From positions 51,382-115,381 of the forward strand of contig JAZNZY010000021.1 of assembly GCA_045595165.1 (NCBI GenBank): a DNA stretch of 64,000 bases. The letters are read 5' to 3'. Under the pieces are notes generated by a model. It was given only the letters and a program-made list of their open reading frames with translations. It was not told the DNA's origin and ran no database searches. This DNA comes from Eubacteriales bacterium. GTDB taxonomy: Bacteria > Bacillota > Clostridia > Oscillospirales > CAG-382. This document shows, piece after piece, positions 3,447 through 60,662 of this stretch. Positions within the stretch are counted from its first letter, which is position 1. Each line of letters starts with the position of its first letter. The position numbers were made by a program, and so were the translations under genes.

Positions 3447-4502
3447 TTAAGACAGATATTCTTTCATATGCAAAGCAATATTTTCGCCCCAGACGGCACA
3501 GCCCTCGTCGTGAGGATGTCCGCCGAACACGGGTAAATCCACGTCCCCGCCCTCGCACAGGAAGCGTGTGTTATCAAAGCAGCGGAAGAAGGTGTTTTTA
3601 ATATATTCGTTTACCTTTTTGCAATTTTTGGCGGCGGATTCGGGATATTCAAAGGGAGGCGCGGTCTGTACGACAACGCATATCCCGCATTTTCCCAGAA
3701 TGCCCGCAACACGAGTGATATCTCTGCATATATCTTGGGCACTTCTGCCGTGAAGAAGATCGTTTGTGCCAAGGCAGATAACGCAAATATCGCAATCCTT
3801 CGCTCTTTCCAGCCAAGCGGCATCGGATGCGGCATCGGATGCGCGGGCGGAGCCTATGCCAAGGTTATAAAAGGAATATTCCCTTCCCAGCTTTTCTGCG
3901 GCTACTGCGCACCAATGGGCGTAGCGGTTGGGAGTTGAGCCGATACCCTGGGTAATGGAATCTCCGAGGAAGCAGATGCGTTTTTTCACTTCCCTCTTTA
4001 CCTGCACGGTTAAAGGTACGGGAACAAAAGGAGTGCGGACCCAAGCGCCGTTTTCATAAATAAAGGTGGGGATAATTATTTCCTCGTGGCAGGGAAGCTT
4101 TTTGCCCTTAAATGCGTATTCCACGCAGAGATATTCGCCTCTACCCGCTTTGATTTTCACCGTGTCGGTAAAAAAGCGTTCACCGGGAAGAATGTTTTTA
4201 TATGATGCGCCTTCAAAAAGTATTTCTGTAAATTTTTCGGGCTGTGCGGGGTTTTCCATACCGCAACGGGGAACTACGCCTACGCGGGCGCAGGATATCT
4301 GCCACTCGCCGCAAAGCATATTCGCCACGGAGCGGGACCCGTCCGCAAAGGTGGAATCCACCGTGTTGCCGAACATAAAGCGGTATTCGCTTCCCCCTGC
4401 AAAAACCTTGTAATATATTCTGCAAAGGTGCTCTTTGCCGTCTGATTTAAAATATGTCTGGTCAGCGCTTGACGCCAAAGTATCGGAAACGAAAGTATGC
4501 AT
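3447..4502 (-). CDS. SGNH/GDSL family hydrolase with an N-terminal domain of about 165 aa of unknown function
   Basis: Block I FLGDSITQG, block III CLGTNDL and a C-terminal D/H block GGHPHDEG. RBS aaaggag lies upstream. Confidence 0.8.
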   Translation of the reverse strand: MHTFVSDTLASSADQTYFKSDGKEHLCRIYYKVFAGGSEYRFMFGNTVDSTFADGSRSVANMLCGEWQISCARVGVVPRCGMENPAQPEKFTEILFEGASYKNILPGERFFTDTVKIKAGRGEYLCVEYAFKGKKLPCHEEIIIPTFIYENGAWVRTPFVPVPLTVQVKREVKKRICFLGDSITQGIGSTPNRYAHWCAVAAEKLGREYSFYNLGIGSARASDAASDAAWLERAKDCDICVICLGTNDLLHGRSAQDICRDITRVAGILGKCGICVVVQTAPPFEYPESAAKNCKKVNEYIKNTFFRCFDNTRFLCEGGDVDLPVFGGHPHDEGCAVWGENIALHMKEYLS

Positions 4503-5400: not shown

Positions 5401-5450
5401 AATATCACTCCTTTAAGGTGAGTATATCACGGAAGAAGAGAAAAATCAAG

Positions 5451-5775
5451 GCGTTTGCGCGGAGCGCAACATCATTGATGCGAAGCATCACATCGTTTGC
5501 ACGAAGTGGAACAAATCACGCCGTAGGCGTGTATGGAATCCGCAACTTGTTGCGGCATGGAATCAAGGCGGCGCCGTGTATGGAATCCGCAGCTTGTCTG
5601 CGGTATGGAATCAACACGAAGTGTTGAATGTAATCAATCCGAAGGTGAATACACGCTGACGCGTGATGCCATACGCCTAACGGTGATTCCATACACCCTG
5701 CGGGTGATTCCATGCCAATCCTTATGCACCCCAAAAGCGCAAAGCGTTTTCGGGGGACCCCGCTTCGGATTGGAT
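5451..5775. repeat. mini-hairpin array D1 (variable short palindromes separated by TATGGAAT / ATTCCATA octamers) 3' of tRNA-Ala
   Basis: Octamers at 5532, 5556, 5579, 5604 and 5627 (TATGGAAT type), then 5665, 5686 and 5707 (reverse-complement type). Hairpins include 5476-5490, 5517-5531, 5540-5555, 5587-5603, 5612-5626 and 5694-5706. Confidence 0.85.
5727..5762 (+). repeat. Rep-C copy (CACCCCAAAA-hairpin-TTTTCGGGGGACCCCG) nested in the loop of the last D1 hairpin
   Basis: caccccaaaagcgcaaagcgttttcgggggaccccg sits between ccaatcc (5715-5721) and ggattgg (5768-5774). Confidence 0.8.
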
Positions 5776-5776
5776 A

Positions 5777-5809
5777 GAAAAAAGACCGTTCGATGAACGG
5801 TCTTTTTTC
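5777..5809 (-). terminator. rho-independent terminator of tRNA-Ala
   Basis: agaccgttc-gat-gaacggtct flanked by A and T runs, directly after the tRNA CCA end. Confidence 0.85.
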
Positions 5810-5810
5810 T

Positions 5811-5885
5811 GGTGGAGCATACGGGACTCGAACCCGTGACCCCAACACTGCCAGTGTTGTGCGCTCCCAGCTGCGCTAATGCCCC
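5811..5885 (-). tRNA. tRNA-Ala (anticodon GGC), CCA encoded
   Basis: Minus strand reads GGGGCAT-TA-GCGCAGCTGGGAGCGC...CTGGCAG loop...ACGGG-TTCGAGT-CCCGT-ATGCTCC-A-CCA. The G3:U70 alanine identity pair is present. Confidence 0.93.
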
Positions 5886-30397: not shown

Positions 30398-30474
30398 GGG
30401 GGCTTAGCTCAGTTGGTTAGAGCACCTGCCTTACAAGCAGGGGGTCACAGGTTCGAGTCCTGTAGCCCCCACCA
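30398..30474 (+). tRNA. tRNA-Val (anticodon TAC), CCA encoded
   Basis: GGGGGCT-TA-GCTCAGTTGGTTAGAGC-A-CCTGC-CTTACAA-GCAGG-GGGTC-ACAGG-TTCGAGT-CCTGT-AGCCCCC-A-CCA. Confidence 0.93.
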
Positions 30475-30508
30475 AAAAAGAACGAAGCACAAGCTTCGTT
30501 CTTTTTTT
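30475..30508 (+). terminator. rho-independent terminator of tRNA-Val
   Basis: gaacgaagc-acaa-gcttcgttc followed by T7. Confidence 0.85.
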
Positions 30509-30510
30509 AT

Positions 30511-30684
30511 CCAAGCCGACTGTTCAAGGCGGCTTGGTATGGCATCAACGCGCTTTTGCGCGTTGTATGTAATTGCGGCGCACGCCGCGTATGGCATTTC
30601 AGTCGGCTTGATTACATACCGCAACAAGTTGCGGATTCCATACACGCCTATCGGCGTGATTACATACAACGGCTTCCGCCGTTG
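30511..30684. repeat. mini-hairpin array D2 (same architecture as D1) 3' of tRNA-Val
   Basis: Octamers TATGGCAT 30538, TATGTAAT 30566 and TATGGCAT 30590, then ATTACATA 30611, ATTCCATA 30635 and ATTACATA 30659. Six different hairpins lie between them. 30619-30658 matches the reverse complement of 5517-5555 at 39 identical positions plus a 1-nt indel. Confidence 0.85.
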
Positions 30685-30704
30685 ATTTTTGACATTCCTC
30701 TTTA

Positions 30705-31657: not shown

Positions 31658-32133
31658 GACTTGGTTATTTACCGCAGAACAAAACGCGAAAAAGTAAAAA
31701 AAGATGTACCGCGAAACCATCACTTTTTTCGCTGACATTTGTTCGAAGCACTATCAATGTAGGAATTCGTGAATACACGAATTCCTTTTTATTTCGCGTT
31801 TTTAAACGTTTTTAGTCGGTGGGCAGTACCTTTGTACAGCCCCACACGCCTAAAAATCCTTTTCTGCGCTAAATACCCGGCGTCCTACCTTCTCCTGTTT
31901 TATATATCAAAAACCACAGCTTTTTACCGCAGACCGAAACGCAAATGAAAATTATACCGTAATTACCGATGCGAGAGATCTTGCTTTTTCTCTCGCATTT
32001 TTGTTTTGTTTATAGGTAGGAATTTGTAAAAAACAAATTCCTTTTATTTTGCGTTTCTACGCATTTTCGCTCGGGAGGCAGTAGAATACTACAGCTCCCC
32101 TCTCGCAAAAAAGCGTTCTGCGCTAAATATCCT

Positions 32134-32168
32134 CGGGGTCCCCGAAAACGCCGCGCGTTTTTGGGGTG
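32134..32168 (-). repeat. Rep-C copy
   Basis: cggggtccccgaaaacgccgcgcgtttttggggtg. Confidence 0.8.
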
Positions 32169-32302
32169 TTCATGCGTCCTACCTTCTCCTGTTTTATATA
32201 TCAAAAACCGTGAGTTTTACCTTCTTCTACGGTAGTTTGGCGGGTTTGAGAAAACATAATGTTTTTGGTCTGCTGACCAAAAACTTCCATAGTTCATCGT
32301 TG

Positions 32303-34897: not shown

Positions 34898-34977
34898 AAT
34901 CACCCCAAGAAGCCTTGCGGCTTCTCGGGGACCCCGTCAATCACCCCAAGAAGCCTTGCGGCTTCTCGGGGACCCCG
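34898..34977 (+). repeat. tandem duplication (2 x 41 bp) of Rep-C
   Basis: aatcaccccaagaagccttgcggcttctcggggaccccg occurs at 34898-34936 and 34939-34977. Confidence 0.9.
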
Positions 34978-34984
34978 ACAACAA

Positions 34985-36775: not shown

Positions 36776-37086
36776 CTTCGCAGATCGAAACGCAAAAAAC
36801 ATTGATACGTAATAACAAATGCGAGAGATTTTAGTTTATCTCTCGCATTCTTGTTTTCTTAATAGGTAGGAATTTGAAAACAAATTCCTTTTTATTTTGC
36901 GTTTCTATAAATTTTCAGTCGGGGGGCAGTAGATTTCTACAGCACCCCGCGCCTGAAAATTCATTCTGCTTTGTTTATACAGCTTCCTGCTTCAATCAGA
37001 CTTTCAGTTCTACAGACGGAATGTATCGAAAACAATTACACGGTTTTTTGCTCTGCAAAAAACTTCCTCATTCCTCATTCCTCATT
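36776..37086 (+). repeat. Rep-A copy 3 (ends in an A/T-clamped hairpin plus TTCCTCA heptad arm)
   Basis: Modules in order: cttcgcagatcgaaacgc; gcgagaga hairpin; taggaatttg..caaattcct plus T-run; gcgtttct; ttttcag..ctgaaaa hairpin; attcattctgctttgtttatacagc; ttttttgctctgcaaaaaa; cttcctcattcctcattcctcatt. Confidence 0.8.
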
Positions 37087-37115
37087 AAAAAACCTCCGAT
37101 TTCTCGGAGGTTTTT
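37087..37115. terminator. bidirectional terminator
   Basis: aaaaaa-cctccga-tttc-tcggagg-ttttt. Confidence 0.8.
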
Positions 37116-39779: not shown

Positions 39780-39796
39780 TTGGAGCTGTCTAAAAG

Positions 39797-39833
39797 ATCA
39801 CCCCAAAAACGCAAGACGTTTTCGGGGACCCCG
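39797..39833 (+). repeat. Rep-C copy
   Basis: atcaccccaaaaacgcaagacgttttcggggaccccg, 18 nt after the stop codon. Confidence 0.8.
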
Positions 39834-39842
39834 ATCAACTTT

Positions 39843-40212
39843 GCAGATCGAAAAACGCGACAGATGAAATAACGGTTTTCGTTCACCCGTAGGGACAGAC
39901 GTCCCGGCTGTCCGTATCAAAATAAAAATGTAGGAATCCGTTTTTTAACGGATTCCTTCTTTATTTTTTATCGCGTTTTTCTATAAATTTTTACTTCGCT
40001 AGCTGTAGATCACTACAGCACGCTCGTAAAAATTCATTCTGCTTTGTTTATACAGCTCCCCGCTTCAGTTGACTCTCGCTGCTACAGACATTGCGTTTCG
40101 AAAATGATTGTACGGTTTTTTGCCCCGCAAAAAACTTCCGAAATTCATCATTCCTCATTGCGGGGTCCCCAAAAATCCGCAGGATTTTAGGGTGCTTACT
40201 CATTCTTCATTG
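39843..40212 (+). repeat. Rep-A copy 4 (with a nested Rep-C at 40161-40194)
   Basis: Modules in order: tttgcagatcgaaaaacgc; taggaatccg..cggattcct plus T-run; gcgtttttct; tttttac..gtaaaaa hairpin; attcattctgctttgtttatacagc; ttttttgccccgcaaaaaa; cttccgaaattcatcattcctcatt; [Rep-C]; cttactcattcttcatt. Confidence 0.8.
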
Positions 40213-41847: not shown

Positions 41848-41909
41848 TGTTTTTTGCTTCACGCAAAAAATTACCGAAGTTCATAGTTCATAGTTCATCG
41901 TTCATAGTT
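41848..41909 (+). repeat. Rep-B half element (A/T-clamped hairpin plus GTTCATA heptad arm)
   Basis: ttttttgcttcacgcaaaaaa-ttaccgaag-ttcatagttcatagttcatcgttcatagtt. Confidence 0.75.
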
Positions 41910-41942
41910 AAAAAATCCGCAGATTTACTCTGCGGATTTTTT
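41910..41942. terminator. bidirectional terminator (serves the DUF1667 operon on the minus strand)
   Basis: aaaaaatccgcag-atttact-ctgcggatttttt. Confidence 0.8.
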
Positions 41943-45099: not shown

Positions 45100-45885
45100 T
45101 TATTTCTTCTTTTTAATAACAACTACTACCACTACAACTGCGATAACAACTGCTGCGATAACGATACCGATGATAAGACCGGTGTTGCCGCCTTCTTCTT
45201 TATCGGAAGGTTCTTCGGAATTGCCTACTGCGGGAACGGAGGTGTCTTCTTCGGACTCTTCCTTGGAGGGCTCTTCGGAGGGTTCTTCGGAAGGCTCTTC
45301 GGAGGGCTCTTCGGAGGATTCTTCGGGAACTTCCTCGGGAACGTAGTTGGGATCAAGCTCAAAGGTGTTAAAGGTGAGCACTGCACCGTCGCAAGTGAAA
45401 ACAGTGAACTGGGTGATCTCTACGTAGCCGTCTGCGTTTACGCCCACAAGCTCTGCAAGCTGTTCAAAAGAAACAGCGCCCTTGTAGGAACCGGAAAGAA
45501 GGTCGCCGGTGCCGCTTTCGATATTATCGCCCATAAACTTGTGAATGTAGTTGTCGCCGCCGTTAATACGGATGCTGGTCTTACCAATGTCAAAGGAAAG
45601 GTCGTATACAAGGTAGGTGCCTTCGCCAACAAGGATAGGCGCGGGAAGAACTGCGTCTGCCCAAGGCCAGGTTCCTGCTGCAGAGCCGGATACAACGGTA
45701 ACGCCTTCGGTTGTTTCAATGGTAATTTCCGTTCCGTTAACGGGGGTATTTACCCAAAGATCTTTGCAGTTATCGAAGATATCATACTTTTCTTCAATAA
45801 CAACGGGCTCGTCTGCGGAAACGGGAATTGCGAAAAATGCGCAAACGAGAGAAACAATAATAAGTACGCTTAAAAGCTTTTTCAT
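45100..45885 (-). CDS. secreted surface protein, acidic PSEE linker, C-terminal TM anchor
   Basis: Signal peptide MKKLLSVLIIVSLVCAFFAIPVSA. (EEPS)n linker. Tail VPAVGNSEEPSDKEEGGNTGLIIGIV...KKKK. Confidence 0.8.
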   Translation of the reverse strand: MKKLLSVLIIVSLVCAFFAIPVSADEPVVIEEKYDIFDNCKDLWVNTPVNGTEITIETTEGVTVVSGSAAGTWPWADAVLPAPILVGEGTYLVYDLSFDIGKTSIRINGGDNYIHKFMGDNIESGTGDLLSGSYKGAVSFEQLAELVGVNADGYVEITQFTVFTCDGAVLTFNTFELDPNYVPEEVPEESSEEPSEEPSEEPSEEPSKEESEEDTSVPAVGNSEEPSDKEEGGNTGLIIGIVIAAVVIAVVVVVVVIKKKK

Positions 45886-45923
45886 GGTTTTTACTCCTTT
45901 AAAGTGGTTTTTTCAGTACTGCA

Positions 45924-45952
45924 ATTATACAATATCCCTTTCGGAAAGTCAA
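45924..45952 (-). promoter_or_regulatory. sigma-A promoter (TTGACT-17-TATAAT)
   Basis: Minus strand has ttgact (45952-45947), a 17-nt spacer and tataat (45929-45924). Confidence 0.7.
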
Positions 45953-45964
45953 CAATATTAAAAA

Positions 45965-45996
45965 TAAAAATGCCCGATATTTCACGGGCATTTTTG
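45965..45996 (-). terminator. rho-independent terminator of the 434-aa surface protein gene
   Basis: atgcccg-tgaaatat-cgggcat plus a T-run on the minus strand. Confidence 0.8.
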
Positions 45997-46023
45997 TGCT
46001 AAATATAAAATATCAATTATCGA

Positions 46024-47328
46024 TTACTTCTTTTTCTTTGCAACGATAACTACAACTACAACAACTGCAATAACAACTACTGCTACAACGATACCGATGA
46101 TAAGACCGGTGTTGCCGCCTTCTTCCTTATCGGAAGGTTCTTCGGAATTGCCTACTGCGGGAACGGTGGTGTCTTCTTCGGAAGGCTCTTCGGAGGGTTC
46201 GTCGGAAGGTTCTTCAGAGGGCTCTTCAGAGGGTTCTTCGGAGGGTTCGTCGGGCTGTTCAGCGGGAACTGCGTAGTAAACTACTGCGCCGGTTTCGTGA
46301 GTCTGCTCTGCGAAGTTGTAGCCTGCGAAGTATACGATGTCGCCTGCAACGAGAGCTGCGAGAGCTTCTTTGTTTGCAGCAGCTTCGGTGCTTTCGCCGT
46401 GAACTGCGAATGCGATGTCGCCTTCCTGAACGTCTGCAAATGCGAATTCATAGTCGCCGTCTGCAGCCTTAACTTCTACTACGGAGTACTGACCTTCGGT
46501 TTCGGTGGGTCTGAGAAGTACGCATGCGGACCAAGCTACGTTGTATGCAGCGAGGTTGGTGGGATCGGTGATGATGGTGTTGGAATCGGTTACGATAGAC
46601 TTGTTGAAGGGAACGTGCTTAATGAACTTTGCACCTGCGGGAATTTCAACGATAGGCTCGATCTCATTAAGATCTATGGATTCTTCCTGGCTTACTTCGC
46701 CGATTTCAGGACCGCCGGCAGACTTAAGGCTTGCGCCAACCTCGGTAAGACCAACCCATTCCCAGCAAACCTTGACGTCCCAGTCGTTACCGGTCTGACC
46801 GTGAGCGCCCATAAAGAAGGATACGGAAACGTATTTTGCGTTAACGGGAGCAGCGAGGTCGATAACTACTTCGCGCTGGAAGGACTGAGTAATGTCTTCG
46901 ATAGTGCTGTCCATGGTGTAAGAGAATTCGTCGAACGCATTACCGTCTACGGAAGTACCAACGATAAGATCGCCATCGGTAGGAAGACCGATCATAGCGT
47001 TTGCGTAGCAGAACCAGTAAAGAGTAATGGTGTCGATGCTCTGAACGGAATCAAGTTCGAAAACGATGGTGCACTCGGTGGGAGTACCGGTGGTGCATGC
47101 CTTATTCTGAACAAGAAGGATACCGGCTTTGTTAAAGTCACGGGCTGCAGCGTCAGCTTCGGAAAGGATTGCGCCGTCAAAAAGCTGAGCGGGATCGTCA
47201 GATGCGAGAGCTTCAACGTTGTCGCCTTTGAATTCAACGGATACAACGTTTGTTTCTGCTGCTGCGGGTATCAGAAAAAGAACTGAAACGAGAGCAACTG
47301 CGAGAATTGCGCATAAAAGCTTTTTCAT
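46024..47328 (-). CDS. secreted surface protein: discoidin/F5-8-type-C-like domain, unknown domain, PSEE linker, C-terminal TM anchor
   Basis: Start moved to MKKLLCAILAVALVSVLFLIPAAA (ATG 47328), because the promoter -10 at 47371-47376 lies inside the 20-codon ORF-track extension. LFDG...WVGLTEVGA is discoidin-like. The tail is the same as in the 45100 gene. Confidence 0.8.
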   Translation of the reverse strand: MKKLLCAILAVALVSVLFLIPAAAETNVVSVEFKGDNVEALASDDPAQLFDGAILSEADAAARDFNKAGILLVQNKACTTGTPTECTIVFELDSVQSIDTITLYWFCYANAMIGLPTDGDLIVGTSVDGNAFDEFSYTMDSTIEDITQSFQREVVIDLAAPVNAKYVSVSFFMGAHGQTGNDWDVKVCWEWVGLTEVGASLKSAGGPEIGEVSQEESIDLNEIEPIVEIPAGAKFIKHVPFNKSIVTDSNTIITDPTNLAAYNVAWSACVLLRPTETEGQYSVVEVKAADGDYEFAFADVQEGDIAFAVHGESTEAAANKEALAALVAGDIVYFAGYNFAEQTHETGAVVYYAVPAEQPDEPSEEPSEEPSEEPSDEPSEEPSEEDTTVPAVGNSEEPSDKEEGGNTGLIIGIVVAVVVIAVVVVVVIVAKKKK

Positions 47329-47370
47329 AGGGTTTTTTGCTCCTTTAAATAATAATATTTTGGTGAAGTG

Positions 47371-47399
47371 ATTATACACTATTTGCAAGAGAAAGTCAA
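47371..47399 (-). promoter_or_regulatory. sigma-A promoter (TTGACT-17-TATAAT)
   Basis: Minus strand has ttgact (47399-47394), a 17-nt spacer and tataat (47376-47371). Confidence 0.7.
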
Positions 47400-47407
47400 C
47401 AACAAAA

Positions 47408-47436
47408 ACAAAAATGTCCGTGTTTTACGGACATTT
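47408..47436 (-). terminator. rho-independent terminator of the 448-aa surface protein gene
   Basis: atgtccgt-aaaac-acggacat plus a T-run on the minus strand. Confidence 0.8.
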
Positions 47437-47455
47437 CTGCTTATATTTCTCGCTA

Positions 47456-48802
47456 TTATCTTTTCTTTTTAACAACAATTACCACTACAACTACAATGGC
47501 AGCTACTGCAATTACAGCTACTACGATACCGATAATAAGGCCTGCGCCGACAACACTTGTCTGTTCGCCGGAAACGGGTTCGGATCCTTCGGTGTCCTCA
47601 TCGGAAACGTCTGCTGCGGGTTCGGATTCATCGGTTGCGGGTTCGGATTCGTCGGTGGGTTCGGATTCTTCGGAGGGCTCTTCGGAAACGTCTTCGGAGG
47701 GCTCTTCGGAAGCTTCGCCGTTATCGGGAGTAGCGGTGTTATCTATAAAGTAAACAACTGCGCCTCTTTCAAAGGACTGTTCCTCAAAATTATAGCCTGC
47801 GAAGGTAACGGTGTCCCCTGCAACAAGAGCGTTGAGCGCAAGTCTGTTTGCCTTGGTGCCGTCTGCATCATCATCGCCGTGAACGGAAAGAACCATATCA
47901 CCCTCTGCCGCATCGGCAAAAACAAAGGTTTCGCTGCCGTTTACCCATTCAACAGCCACTACCTCGTAAACGCCTTCGGTTTCGGTAGGTCTGATAAGTG
48001 CGCAGGAGGTCCACTTAACATTGAAATCCTGCATAGTTGCGGGATCGGTAATGATAGTGTAAGAGCCGGTGGTGATAGAGGTGTTGAACTTAGCGTGCTT
48101 GAGTGCTACGTGTCCTTCGGGAATTTCTACGATAGGCTCGATCTGATCGAGGGGAGTGTTGTCCTCGCTTACTTCCTCATAGCCGCCGTCAAGAACTTCA
48201 TCTACCTCAAGGCCTGCGCCGACTTCGGTAAAGCCGACCCATTCCCAAAGAGGGCACCACCAGTCGCTGTATCCGTGGGGGCCGAATTCAAAGGTAACAG
48301 AAACGTATTTTGCCTTTACGGTCTGACCCAGTCTTATAGTGGTATCAAGCTGAAAGGAGGTATCGGGGTCGGTTTCGCCCTCGAAATCGTATGCGCCGAT
48401 CTCGGTGTAAATGTCGCCGTCTGCGGAATAGCCTATGATAAGGTTATTGTTAACGGGCAGACCGATTATTGCCATGTGATACACGTACCAGGTGATATAA
48501 ACGGTGTCTATATCCTGAAGGGAATCAAGCTCGAAATACATGGTTGCAATGGTGTTTTCGGTATCGTTCATATCGGTGTTCTGAAGCAGAACGATGCCTT
48601 CCTTGGTGAAGTCACTGGCGTTCGCATTTTCTTCGGAAAGGATCTTGTTATCGTAAAGAAGGGTAAGATCTGCTCCTGCGCGAACCTTTACGTCGCCCTC
48701 AAACCAAACCTTGGTTACGTTCGCCTTTGCATCTGCGGGGATAGCAAGCAAAGCGCAAACAACGGCGAGAACGATAAGTACGCTTAAAATTCTTTTTTTC
48801 AT
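47456..48802 (-). CDS. secreted surface protein, paralogue of 46024..47328
   Basis: Signal peptide MKKRILSVLIVLAVVCALLAIPADA. Same two-domain layout. Acidic SEEPSE linker. TM plus a KKKR tail. Confidence 0.8.
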   Translation of the reverse strand: MKKRILSVLIVLAVVCALLAIPADAKANVTKVWFEGDVKVRAGADLTLLYDNKILSEENANASDFTKEGIVLLQNTDMNDTENTIATMYFELDSLQDIDTVYITWYVYHMAIIGLPVNNNLIIGYSADGDIYTEIGAYDFEGETDPDTSFQLDTTIRLGQTVKAKYVSVTFEFGPHGYSDWWCPLWEWVGFTEVGAGLEVDEVLDGGYEEVSEDNTPLDQIEPIVEIPEGHVALKHAKFNTSITTGSYTIITDPATMQDFNVKWTSCALIRPTETEGVYEVVAVEWVNGSETFVFADAAEGDMVLSVHGDDDADGTKANRLALNALVAGDTVTFAGYNFEEQSFERGAVVYFIDNTATPDNGEASEEPSEDVSEEPSEESEPTDESEPATDESEPAADVSDEDTEGSEPVSGEQTSVVGAGLIIGIVVAVIAVAAIVVVVVIVVKKKR

Positions 48803-48833
48803 TGTTTTACTCCTTTTTTGAACACAGAAATTT

Positions 48834-48937
48834 AACGATGAACTATGAACTATGAACTATGAACGAATGGTTGATTTTTGTTCTGCGAACAAAAATCTTC
48901 CGAAGTTCCTCGTTCATCGTTTCTAGTTCCTCGTTTC
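48834..48937 (-). repeat. Rep-B full element B2 (heptad arm - hairpin - heptad arm), within the 5' leader of the 47456..48802 gene
   Basis: aacgatgaactatgaactatgaactatgaacga-atggttg-atttttgttctgcgaacaaaaat-cttccgaag-ttcctcgttcatcgtttctagttcctcgtt. It is the reverse complement of B3. Confidence 0.85.
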
Positions 48938-56445: not shown

Positions 56446-56479
56446 TAAAAAAGAGCAGACTGTGTCTGCTCTTTTTTTT
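56446..56479. terminator. bidirectional rho-independent terminator
   Basis: aaaaa-agagcagac-tgt-gtctgctct-ttttttt. Confidence 0.85.
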
Positions 56480-56582
56480 AACGATGAACTAGAAACGAGG
56501 AACGAGGAACTTCGGAAGATTTTTGTTCGCAGAACAAAAATCAACCATTCGTTCATAGTTTATCGTTCATAGTTCATCGTTT
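56480..56582 (+). repeat. Rep-B full element B3
   Basis: aacgatgaactagaaacgaggaacgaggaa-cttcggaag-atttttgttcgcagaacaaaaat-caaccat-tcgttcatagtttatcgttcatagttcatcgtt. A 57-nt core is identical to the reverse complement of B2. Confidence 0.85.
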
Positions 56583-56583
56583 C

Positions 56584-57501
56584 TTACGGTAAAACCAGTT
56601 GTACTGCGCCTTCCAATATCTTAAGCACGGGATCGCGCATTAATATAATCTCTCCGTCCACGTTAAAGGGGATACGGTTGGGAGAGCATATTTTTAATTT
56701 CTTGCAGCGGCGGAAGGTAACTACATCCTTCGCTTTTTCAAAATGCTCGCCTTTTTTATATATGTTTACCAGCTTTAAAATGCCCGCTCGGGAAACACGG
56801 TCGATACAGACAAAATCCATAAGCCCATCGTTTACCTTGGCGTACGGAGCGGCTTTATATGCGCCGCCGTAATAATTTCCGTTGGCGGCGAGGGCGAACA
56901 TACAAGGGTGGGATCCGCCGAAAACGTCCTCATCATCACAAATAACGGTGTATTCGTATTTTTCGTACTTTAAAAAGCATTCAACCAGGGACATATTGTA
57001 TGAGCCTTTTCCTCCCAAAATACGGCGGTATTTGCCCATTCCGTCTGCCACCGCGGAATCAAAACCCGCAGACGCTACATTTACGCTTATGTATCCCGTG
57101 CCGCTTTCCGAATCCGTAACGGAAATAACGTCCAGCGGTACTGTTTTTCCCTTGGAAACCCGCTTCAGATCTCGGAAATCCGACGGAGTGTAATCCGGAA
57201 ACGCCTTTATAAAATCGTTTCCGCTTCCCGTGGGGACAACCGCCACGGAGCAGTTTTTACTGCCGGAGCGGATTATTCCCGTAACCACCTCGTTAAAGGT
57301 GCCATCTCCTCCGCAGGCGTAAATACGTAGGTGATCATCGGTGTTTTTTAATTGCTCGCACACCTCACGTATAGCATCCTTCGCGCATACGGTAACGTAT
57401 TTTTCACATTTTTCAAGGTGTAGCTTATCCACCGCTTCGGAAATAATGTTCGAACGGTCTTTACTGCCCGCAACGGGGTTTAATATAAAAAGATGCTTCA
57501 T
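56584..57501 (-). CDS. diacylglycerol/lipid kinase family protein (YegS/DagK-like)
   Basis: MKHLFILNPVAGS..., ACGGDGTFNEV, PTGSGNDF. Confidence 0.85.
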   Translation of the reverse strand: MKHLFILNPVAGSKDRSNIISEAVDKLHLEKCEKYVTVCAKDAIREVCEQLKNTDDHLRIYACGGDGTFNEVVTGIIRSGSKNCSVAVVPTGSGNDFIKAFPDYTPSDFRDLKRVSKGKTVPLDVISVTDSESGTGYISVNVASAGFDSAVADGMGKYRRILGGKGSYNMSLVECFLKYEKYEYTVICDDEDVFGGSHPCMFALAANGNYYGGAYKAAPYAKVNDGLMDFVCIDRVSRAGILKLVNIYKKGEHFEKAKDVVTFRRCKKLKICSPNRIPFNVDGEIILMRDPVLKILEGAVQLVLP

Positions 57502-60521: not shown

Positions 60522-60527
60522 AAATTA

Positions 60528-60630
60528 AATGAGGAATGAGAAATGAGAAATGAGAAATTAAGGAAGCTTATTGCACCGCGGTGCAAAAAGCAACCATCAT
60601 TCATCATTTATCATTCATCATTCCTCATTA
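60528..60630 (+). repeat. Rep-B full element B4 (AATGAGA / TTCATCA heptad arms)
   Basis: aaatgaggaatgagaaatgagaaatgagaaat-taaggaag-cttattgcaccgcggtgcaaaaag-caaccat-cattcatcatttatcattcatcattcctcatt. Confidence 0.8.
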
Positions 60631-60662
60631 AAAAACTCCCGATTTTATCGGGAGTTTTTGTT
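60631..60662. terminator. bidirectional rho-independent terminator
   Basis: aaaaaa-ctcccga-tttta-tcgggag-ttttt. Confidence 0.85.

Follow-up and report, generated by a model that had tools for sequence, protein, structure and literature searches.

Organization of the cassette behind tRNA-Ala

A 64,000-nucleotide (nt) stretch of contig JAZNZY010000021.1 from a Eubacteriales bacterium (hereafter the window, within which all positions are numbered) carries two tRNA genes, and the region directly 3' of one of them, tRNA-Ala, had been singled out by an original prediction, made from the sequence alone, as an array of dissimilar mini-hairpins punctuated by a constant octamer. This tRNA gene lies on the minus strand and its element is therefore best read on that strand (the tRNA sense); the element behind the other gene, tRNA-Val, is read on the plus strand. 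The genes of the neighborhood encode a 290-amino-acid (aa) protein without a Pfam match, a GDSL lipase, IspE and a YitT-family protein. What follows tRNA-Ala is a cassette whose parts stand in an order that recurs throughout the family described below: a terminator right after the CCA end of the tRNA, a start hairpin, two to four forward units, a mid segment and two to nine reverse units (Table 1).

The cassette starts directly 3' of tRNA-Ala, the terminator being taken as its first module. The start hairpin of this copy (array A) reads ATCCAATCC-GAAG...GGATTGG and holds a 41-nt hairpin of the Rep-C type in its loop, while the intact form, CCAATCC-GAA-GGATTGG, is present at three related loci (L121, L123 and L240). 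Three linker-hairpin units make up the first (F) arm (CATGGAAT-CACCCGCAGGGTG, TATGGAAT-CACCGTTAGGCG and TATGGCAT-CACGCGTCAGCGTG), with a linker pattern of TATGGMAT and with GCA and GTCA loops that obey the G..A rule set out below. The start hairpin's 5' arm and loop recur as their reverse complement in the mid segment (5635-5644 against 5763-5772, 100% complementary), and in the second (R) arm the linkers run, in order, ATTACATT, ATTCCATA twice, ATTCCATG and ATTCCATA, accompanied by the hairpins CAACACTTCGTGTTG, CCGCAGACAAGCTGCGG, CACGGCGCCGCCTTG, CCGCAACAAGTTGCGG and CACGCCTACGGCGTG (direct repeat families D1, D2 and D4).

The octamers lie exactly where the original prediction had placed them on the plus strand, the forward type at 5532, 5556, 5579, 5604 and 5627 and the reverse type at 5665, 5686 and 5707. 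Its treatment of 5451-5775 as a single array stood in part: positions 5513-5775 form a complete array, whereas 5451-5512 belong to a remnant of another family, with hairpins that include TGATGC-TTC-GCATCA and TTGCGC-TCC-GCGCAA. This remnant matches the right arm of the complete array after tRNA-Ala in L241, has a similar counterpart in L123, and is probably a displaced and decaying older array. The prediction was right to place Rep-C inside the terminal hairpin's loop. The close relative L121 (IspE 96% identical) lacks Rep-C in its orthologous array, and Rep-C is therefore a secondary, recent insertion into the hairpin loop. No credible open reading frame was found in the region, again as predicted, and the next gene has its promoter (5449-5421) outside the array; the same promoter arrangement, TTGATT-17-TATACT, follows the array in L123 and L240 as well. 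A promoter scan gave no promoter-like site within or ahead of array A.

Both the motif and the folding potential of array A exceeded chance expectation. The window contains 10 occurrences of the motif ATGGAATC where 2.3 were expected; no shuffle gave as many as 10, and 6 of the 10 lie within 5533-5713. Folded as single-stranded DNA, array A surpassed its shuffles on either strand (z = -6.4 for the minus and -5.5 for the plus strand).

The cassette family and its association with tRNA genes

Further copies, the existence of which had been put forward as a check, were found both in the same window (30509-30688) and in many genomes. The copy in the window (array B) follows tRNA-Val, and its terminator belongs to a stem family (GAACGAAG..CTTCGTTC) that is also found behind tRNA-Asn in L058. 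Its mid segment is CAGTCGGCTTG (30600-30610). A 47-nt stretch is 94% identical between array B and the R arm of array A, and the remainder differs. None of the other strong terminators of the 64-kb window has such a hairpin array after it.

To delimit the family, one genome per species was scanned for three consecutive GATTMCAT motifs at a spacing of 11 to 19 nt, which yielded at least 120 loci compared with approximately 3 estimated by chance. About half of the matches, among them coding repeats and short contigs with contaminating ATTCC-type satellites, were unrelated and were dropped by a strict hairpin filter. The counts that follow (61 loci, 46 oriented elements, 45 terminators, 190 units and 108 hairpins) rest on the matches listed from these scan loci, and are to be read as counts among those matches. 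The loci kept, at least 61 in number, were all from metagenome-assembled genomes of gut Clostridia of different species, labeled Acutalibacteraceae, Oscillospiraceae, Ruminococcaceae, Christensenellaceae, Eubacteriales or Clostridia; the start hairpin gave the orientation of 46 elements. In this clade of gut Clostridia (Acutalibacteraceae, Oscillospiraceae and relatives) the cassette is specific to tRNA-operon 3' flanks.

The association with tRNA 3' flanks, for which a check had been proposed, was evident in the oriented elements: an intact tRNA gene on the same strand, as called by ARAGORN, ends 32 to 48 nt upstream of 27 of the 46 and represents 11 isotypes, and two more have an obvious T-arm upstream that ARAGORN missed. 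A terminator with A-tract and T-tract lies directly upstream in 40 of 45 elements, the start hairpin faces the terminator in 46 of 46, and the start sequence T(C/T)CAA(N)CC is conserved across all 46, so that linkage to the tRNA terminator is in one fixed orientation. A typical copy has two to four forward and two to five reverse units, and one has nine reverse units. Some array was present near ~11 of 17 other terminal tRNAs from the Clostridial loci.

Outside these chromosomes the family was essentially absent. A scan of viral contigs returned 114 pattern matches, only one of which (L137) was genuine in having hairpin units, the others being unrelated tandem repeats, many of them in giant-virus bins; blastn against plasmid and phage collections gave no match. 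Within the window only the two tRNAs passed the Rfam gathering threshold, and the arrays remained uncovered even at E <= 10. The statement that the element is not a described class was borne out by this lack of an Rfam match and by the full-text literature searched, the coverage of which is incomplete and which contained no description of the element.

Stems, loops and predicted folds

Because unit number varies and the hairpins are non-homologous, no covariance model was built and base pairs were counted directly instead. The proposed grammar of a constant linker with a variable palindromic filler, and the suggestion that structure rather than sequence is maintained, both held across the family: 140 of the 190 linker-flanked fillers are distinct, yet their five outermost stem positions are 95-97% Watson-Crick. 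The compensatory pairing that the prediction had asked about is thus visible in the pair counts, in which the stems covary, and pairing is kept over more than 100 different stems. The exceptions show no strand bias (17 G.T versus 16 A.C).

The loops follow a rule of their own. Among 108 well-formed hairpins, each taken on the strand suited to its arm, a G..A loop occurs in 58 and a T..C loop in none; the closing pair is C-G in 90, and 62 have triloops. Counted by arm, G..A loops make up 20 of 38 on the tRNA-sense strand of the forward arm (GAA, GCA, GTA, GTAA, GCAA and GTCA among examples) and 38 of 70 on the opposite strand of the reverse arm. The polarity switch and motif-level palindrome that had been noted in the window thus extend to the loops, and because the favorable loops sit on opposite strands in the two arms, the arms are true mirror images. 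Hairpins of the cGNAg and cGNNAg kind, d(GCGNAGC) and d(GCGNNAGC), are extraordinarily stable DNA mini-hairpins, a stability that TTC loops lack (PMC13037366). The sequences of the arrays conform to this DNA mini-hairpin rule, in which a C-G pair closes a loop of G-N-A or G-N-N-A (PMC13037366).

The two halves of the cassette are also matched to each other. Complementarity between the 5' arm and loop of the start hairpin and the mid segment averages 9.5 of 10 positions across the 46 elements, compared with 8.3 ± 0.12 when partners were permuted, a value that 0 of 10,000 permutations reached, and the partners change together (AATCCGAAG/CTTCGGATT, AAGCCGCAG/CTGCGGCTT, AAACCCGAA/TTCGGGTTT and AAGCCGACT/AGTCGGCTT). 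G/T variants of the forward-arm linker likewise track C/A variants of the reverse-arm linker within elements (rho = 0.75, uncorrected for phylogeny). The DNA fold of array B (z = -8.9) has as its centroid an 11-bp helix of start and mid segments that encloses the F hairpins and is followed by three free R hairpins. Folded as RNA, minimum free energies were -71.0 kcal/mol for the sense and -69.7 kcal/mol for the antisense strand; an energy asymmetry between the strands was accordingly dropped as a candidate feature.

Turnover at the ispE-tRNA-Ala locus

No record matched the IspE of the window exactly, and orthologous loci were located through IspE homologues; genomes other than that of the window were examined as 8-kb pieces. 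Beyond the window, eight ispE-tRNA-Ala loci were readable past the tRNA, and each has an array after the terminator (nine of nine with the window); among them these nine loci hold four different linker families together with remnants of older arrays. The closest relative, L121, has a terminator identical to that of the window, and differs in the absence of Rep-C, in having three rather than five reverse units and in several of its hairpins. Units are therefore replaced much more quickly than point substitutions accrue. In L123, L240 and L242 the terminator stem itself is wholly different, with the A- and T-tracts retained. Units and whole families thus turn over rapidly at this one orthologous position.

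The sister families share one grammar, namely terminator, start hairpin, forward units, a mid segment complementary to the start, and reverse units, and differ in their linkers (GTGAAGTT/AACTTCAC, CATCGTT/AACGATG, TATATCAT/ATGATATA, TATGAAAT/ATTTCATA and GTGATG/CATCAC). Modules are also common to different tRNA loci. Identical hairpins recur across arrays and species (CCGCAACAAGTTGCGG in 10 loci, and 22 shared fillers altogether), and terminator stems recur behind different tRNAs. Two loci of one genome, L035 behind tRNA-Gln and L041 behind tRNA-Ser, have in common a rare start variant, the terminator stem and three hairpins, and differ elsewhere. Since terminator and hairpin 'alleles' are shared in this way across tRNA loci, terminator and array act as one exchanged cassette.

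Flanking genes and possible traces of mobility

No recurrent integrase, transposase or other mobility gene was found within 2.5-3.5 kb downstream of 46 loci. The only recurrent neighbor is a gene for a small four-helix-bundle protein of PF05635 (23S rRNA intervening-sequence protein; E = 7.5e-22), which starts 13 to 67 nt past the array in 6 of the 46 oriented loci and also follows the array in L242. A composite element that includes this gene was considered and rejected, there being no second array or repeat on its far side. The orientation of the downstream gene (27 co-directional versus 7 convergent) was uninformative. The arrays are flanked by housekeeping genes (ispE, polC) whose synteny is conserved. 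The ends of the element are loosely inverted (start hairpin versus final hairpin), and the flanking bases show no consistent duplication. Within the 64-kb window there is no direct repeat of either tRNA 3' end.

Several further observations concern these flanks. At six loci a decayed copy of the local tRNA 3' end (T-arm and acceptor strand) lies between the intact tRNA and the terminator with its array, and resembles the footprint that integration or duplication would leave there. Several arrays, whichever tRNA precedes them, are followed by a conserved T-arm-like piece, GCACGGGTTCAAGTCCGTACGAAAAC...AAAATATCTTTTTTGT. The 290-aa gene downstream of array A is markedly low in G+C (0.35-0.37, compared with ~0.5 nearby), and L240 has a 290-aa gene at the position matching it. 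The contig of L122 ends at 3868 inside tRNA-Ala, just before the array, and arrays lie near the edge of the retrieved piece in L002, L010, L012, L029, L054 and L094, among other examples. This suggests that the cassettes may fragment short-read assemblies, at least for L122.

Other repeats in the window

Strong bidirectional terminators of protein-coding operons in the window are flanked by dyad-symmetric arrays of contiguous heptamers (AACGATG/AACTATG versus CATAGTT/CATCGTT, and AATGAGA versus TCTCATT) with no hairpin between units, some of them with a central hairpin. The elements at 48834-48935 and 56480-56581 are inverted copies of each other (96%), and the heptamer AACGATG is identical to the linker of one hairpin-array family. 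The Rep-C family consists of REP-like GC-rich hairpins (GGGGTCCCCGAAAACGC..GCGTTTTTGGGGTG), several copies of which are present. An intergenic repeat of ~90 nt (TTTTTATTTTGCGTTTCTA...CAGTAG..CTACAGC) has four copies, each beside AGGAAT..ATTCCT terminator-like hairpins. Finally, 45100-47730 holds three paralogous minus-strand genes with long repeats of 12-nt period (TCTTCGGAGGGC...), a low-complexity coding sequence for acidic or serine-rich protein.

Table 1. Features of the two cassettes, related loci and other repeats; positions without a locus label refer to the window
Feature	Locus or position	Strand	Details
tRNA-Ala (GGC), CCA encoded	5810..5885	-	ARAGORN; Rfam tRNA 62.4 bits
tRNA-Ala promoter TTGACA-18-TATAAT	5925-5896	-	promoter scan
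Bidirectional intrinsic terminator	5776..5810	-	A-tract, perfect 16-nt arms, T-tract; inverted repeat, 100% complementary
Start hairpin ATCCAATCCGAAG...GGATTGG	5715..5775	-	5' arm and loop 5763-5775, 3' arm 5715-5721
Rep-C, REP-like GC-rich hairpin CGGGGTCCCCCGAAAACGC..GCGCTTTTGGGGTGCATAA	5722..5762	-	in start-hairpin loop
F (first) arm	5652..5714	-	3 units of 8-nt linker and hairpin; direct repeats D5, D7
Degenerate linker TATTCA and mid segment CCTTCGGATTG	5635..5651	-	mid segment 5635-5645
R (second) arm	5513..5634	-	5 units of linker ATTMCAT(A/T/G) and hairpin, ending ATTT
Remnant right arm of another, probably older array family	5451..5512	-	three hairpins; linkers AACGATG/ATGATG
Promoter-like TTGATT-17-TATACT (with TG) of 290-aa gene	5421..5449	-	outside array, marks its boundary
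Downstream gene, 290 aa	4528-5400	-	no Pfam match
tRNA-Val (TAC), only other tRNA of the window	30398-30474	+	ARAGORN
tRNA-Val terminator	30474..30507	+	first module of second cassette
Array B	30509..30688	+	start hairpin 30509-30537, 3 F units, mid, 3 R units, final hairpin and ATTT
ispE-tRNA-Ala array	window		family 1 (TATGKAAT/ATTMCATA), 3+5 units, and family 3 remnant
ispE-tRNA-Ala array	L121		IspE 96%; family 1, 3+3 units, then further array with GTGATGC/GCATCAC linkers
ispE-tRNA-Ala array	L123		IspE 79%; family 1, 3+4 units, and family 3 remnant
ispE-tRNA-Ala array	L125		IspE 74%; GTGAAGTT/AACTTCAC family, then truncated family 1 array
ispE-tRNA-Ala array	L240		IspE 70%; family 1, 3+4 units
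ispE-tRNA-Ala array	L241		IspE 69%; CATCGTT/AACGATG family (family 3)
ispE-tRNA-Ala array	L242		IspE 66%; TATATCAT/ATGATATA family
ispE-tRNA-Ala array	L243		IspE 57%; TATATCAT/ATGATATA family
Sister-family arrays downstream of tRNAs	L125 3945-4125; L241 2440-2640; L242 2420-2590		
Further sister-family arrays behind tRNAs	L053, L082, L025, L028, L020, L110, L117		
PF05635 gene directly after array	L004, L041, L057, L058, L068, L091, L242		
Decayed tRNA 3'-end duplicates	L012, L028 (Trp); L068 (Glu); L099 (Lys)		14-500 nt past real gene
Decayed tRNA 3'-end duplicates, continued	L037 (Leu); L243 2385-2440 (Ala)		
T-arm-like piece	L029, L035, L066, L070, L075; L125 ~4125-4185		just after array in the first five
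Heptamer arrays	56447-56590; 48831-48935; 41872-41942; 60525-60659; 37064-37115		
Further Rep-C copies	32133-32171; 34898-34938; 34939-34979; 39796-39836; also ~32300, ~40160		
~90-nt repeat	31774-31866; 32029-32121; 36877-36969; 39965-40021		

Interpretation and alternative explanations

The one function that can be read directly from the cassette is that it supplies the terminator of the tRNA operon; any role of the array for the cell beyond that, if it has one, would be presumptive. Our preferred reading, held tentatively and judged to fall somewhat short of an even chance, is that the region represents a single copy of a repeated, non-coding DNA cassette of a REP/BIME/MITE-like kind, maintained through the structure of single-stranded DNA and spread or homogenized by recombination. 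The structure that matters is probably single-stranded DNA rather than RNA, because there is no excess of G.U, cGNAg triloops dominate, the favorable strand switches between the arms, and a strong terminator lies upstream, with no promoter inside or ahead of the array. The likeness to REP, BIME and MITE elements is drawn because turnover is fast, the newer arrays are proximal to the tRNA and decayed ones more distal, terminators and hairpins are shared, and Rep-C sits in a loop. According to this reading the cassette would colonize, or be copied into, the site right after tRNA genes, and cGNAg/cGNNAg mini-hairpins could form when replication, transcription or supercoiling unwinds the DNA, those of the first arm on the tRNA-sense strand and those of the second on its complement. 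Copies would be homogenized and reshuffled unit by unit through recombination at the identical linkers, and new cassettes would enter beside the tRNA while the displaced, older arrays decay.

Several points weigh against this reading. No mobilizing enzyme was found in the array neighborhoods, no target-site duplication is definable, with the bases after the terminal GATT varying, and no empty site was found at the orthologous ispE-tRNA-Ala locus, so that mobility is deduced only from replacement, tandem pile-up and shared modules. The presence of arrays behind tRNA-Ala in nine of nine species could equally mean a conserved host function instead of selfish spread. Hairpin formation in vivo is a prediction only, and equal numbers of G.T and A.C, which fit DNA, could also arise if short RNA stems were under very strong selection. 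In addition, the linker families GTGAAGTT, TATGAAAT and GTGATG show the opposite loop polarity relative to the tRNA, and no single model of strand exposure fits every linker family. A different reading, possible but in our judgment rather unlikely, is that the cassettes belong to an unrecognized system that acts where tRNA operons end, on folded single-stranded DNA, either as a homing element or as a host device. As a homing element, the cassette would be an active mobile element with its own terminator that targets the site after CCA and is moved by an enzyme not yet linked to it; as a host device, SSB-resistant mini-hairpins and exposed 8-nt linkers would serve, for instance, priming or restart, or form a bidirectional barrier, at sites where replication encounters genes that are very heavily transcribed.

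An explanation at the level of RNA would have the array transcribed by read-through of the terminator or from the opposite side, to act as an exonuclease barrier or as a protein sponge, in the latter case with the AU-rich 8-nt single-stranded linkers UAUGUAAU and UAUGGAAU between the hairpins binding the protein. The pairing kept in many hairpins of differing sequence, the strong predicted folds and the presence of some GNRA loops (GUAA, GCAA) would all agree with a structured RNA, and the TATGGAAT linker variant contains GGA, a feature of CsrA-type sites. We nevertheless regard this explanation as unlikely, given that a perfect A-tract/T-tract terminator lies directly upstream in 40 of 45 copies, that the promoter scan found no promoter-like site in or before the array, that Rfam gave no match, and that G.T is no more frequent than A.C (17 versus 16), although selected RNA stems normally tolerate G.U far more. 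Furthermore, 57% of the loops are triloops, and GTCA, GTTA and GATA are not GNRA loops; loop polarity flips between the arms, so no single transcript holds all of the favorable loops, and at least five coexisting linker sequences argue against one RNA-binding protein. That diversity of linkers bears equally on an array of double-stranded binding sites, comparable to iterons or partition sites, in which a protein would read the 8-bp linkers in two opposed blocks and the whole would be a roadblock, insulator, nucleoid organizer or recombination site behind tRNA operons. Such an array would account for the constant linker, the regular period of 21-25 bp (about two helical turns) and the opposed blocks; hairpin-free heptamer dyad arrays flank other terminators of the window, and TATGTAA may resemble the inner part of a Firmicute dif/Xer half-site. 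It leaves unexplained, however, the near-perfect palindromic spacers with C-G-closed G..A loops and the complementarity of start and mid segments, it would need several cognate proteins for at least five linker families that share genomes and, at one locus, even stand in tandem, and no DNA-binding gene is consistently adjacent in 46 loci, all of which makes it quite unlikely.

tRNA 3' ends are classic integration sites, and the arrays might accordingly be att remnants, that is, arm-type recombinase or excisionase sites left at tRNA genes by the integrases of islands or prophages. The decayed tRNA 3'-end duplicates at six loci (L012, L028, L037, L068, L099 and L243) fit this view, which we consider highly unlikely all the same: there is no integrase 2.5-3.5 kb downstream in 46 loci, neither tRNA 3' end is directly repeated in the 64-kb window, the same cassette stands behind 11 tRNA isotypes, the genes around it are syntenic housekeeping genes (ispE, polC), viral contigs, phages and plasmids are essentially free of the family, and arm-type sites need no palindromic spacers. 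An integrase or island origin was rejected on the lack of tRNA 3'-end repeats in the window and of a recurrent mobility gene. Hardly credible, finally, is a guide-RNA array of the CRISPR-like or TIGR-Tas-like stem-loop type. Its grammar is superficially alike in that constant short motifs alternate with variable palindromes: TIGR stem-loop arrays combine conserved short motifs with 'variable but consistently palindromic' sequences, and are found mostly on mobile elements and phages (PMC12045711). The sister linkers GUGAUG and UGAUGA also resemble box C. The cassette, however, has no pair of 8- to 12-nt non-palindromic spacers (its units are 21-25 nt with loops of 3-5 nt), no box D partner and no Nop-domain (Tas) or cas gene nearby; it is chromosomal, unlike the mostly mobile or phage-borne TIGR arrays, and self-complementary 'spacers' cannot guide in the known way. 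A TIGR-Tas stem-loop array was rejected on these defining features, there being no room for dual spacers and no Tas gene.

Significance

Most of the tRNA operons examined in this clade of gut Clostridia, which is known almost only from metagenomes, end in such cassettes. They supply the tRNA terminators and lie immediately upstream of the promoter of the next gene, and they change faster than the surrounding genes, so that annotation and strain typing are affected; they are also worth considering when carrier organisms are engineered. The grammar is unusual in joining an invariant linker to stems that all differ, to DNA-type loops and to two arms on opposite strands. The arrays may be a natural test case for whether bacterial genomes maintain arrays of single-stranded DNA structures, and they bear on how repeats become tied to tRNA genes without an integrase.

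Comparison with known systems

The arrays depart clearly from two classes of repeat with defined hallmarks. As a CRISPR they fail, the constant part being 8 nt (compared with at least ~23), the 'spacers' being palindromes of 11-19 nt and cas genes being absent; as integron attC sites or CALIN they fail in that the linkers TATGKAAT/ATTMCATA have no RYYYAAC/GTTRRRY core, the period is 21-25 nt and there are no cassettes of the integron kind. The cassette resembles CRISPR and TIGR arrays in its alternation of constant short motifs with variable sequence, the TIGR stems being variable palindromes, and differs from them in having neither guide spacers nor an effector gene, in its far shorter units and in its chromosomal, tRNA-linked location.

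Closer likenesses are to bacterial extragenic repeats. With REP, BIME and REPIN elements the cassette shares clustered short extragenic palindromes, the mixing of palindromes with short motifs, both orientations and many copies per genome, and for REP/BIME, likewise as here, a role as DNA (binding of gyrase, IHF or an HUH enzyme) and a role as RNA are both debated. REP elements have a conserved palindrome with a GTAG head and variable inter-unit motifs, whereas the cassette has a constant 8-nt linker and nearly every stem is different; moreover, it consists of two opposed blocks rather than an alternation, lies strictly after a tRNA terminator in one orientation, and has stems of 4-7 bp with cGNAg loops. 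No RAYT (Y1 HUH transposase) gene was seen beside the arrays in the 64 kb of the source genome or in the 8-kb pieces of the others. MITE-like repeats of Firmicutes and Neisseria such as BOX, RUP, Correia and bcr1 are similarly non-coding, 100-250 bp long, intergenic, modular (BOX A-Bn-C) and foldable; their loosely inverted ends have a parallel in the cassette, where ATCCAAGCC...GGCTTGG faces CAAGGC...GCCTTGATT, and the 3' end of the cassette can give the next gene a -35 (TTGATT). Unlike MITEs, the cassette has dissimilar internal hairpins in place of copies of a single module, and its orientation is fixed relative to terminator and tRNA. No target-site duplication was definable from the flanking bases; no similarity to the end of an insertion sequence was found in the plasmid and phage collections, nor a recurrent transposase in the array neighborhoods. 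A terminator hairpin within a repeated family, standing behind unrelated genes, is familiar from the TRIT motif of Mycobacterium and the DUS-pair terminators of Neisseria. Unlike these, the terminator here is only the first module, followed by a dyad hairpin array of 150-250 nt, and is linked to tRNA operons.

For the loops, the closest parallel is offered by the mini-hairpins d(GCGNAGC)/d(GCGNNAGC) of single-strand origins and N4 promoters, which follow the same loop and closing-pair rule as the cassette (PMC13037366). Unwinding or supercoiling of DNA is known to let such mini-hairpins form, and primases and polymerases recognize them (PMC13037366). The known examples number one to three per phage or plasmid origin or promoter, whereas the cassette is chromosomal and has 6-12 hairpins with constant linkers. 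The cassette is of the general kind of the extragenic palindromic or mosaic repeats. Its grammar, its strict link to tRNA terminators and its DNA-type loops match no family compared.

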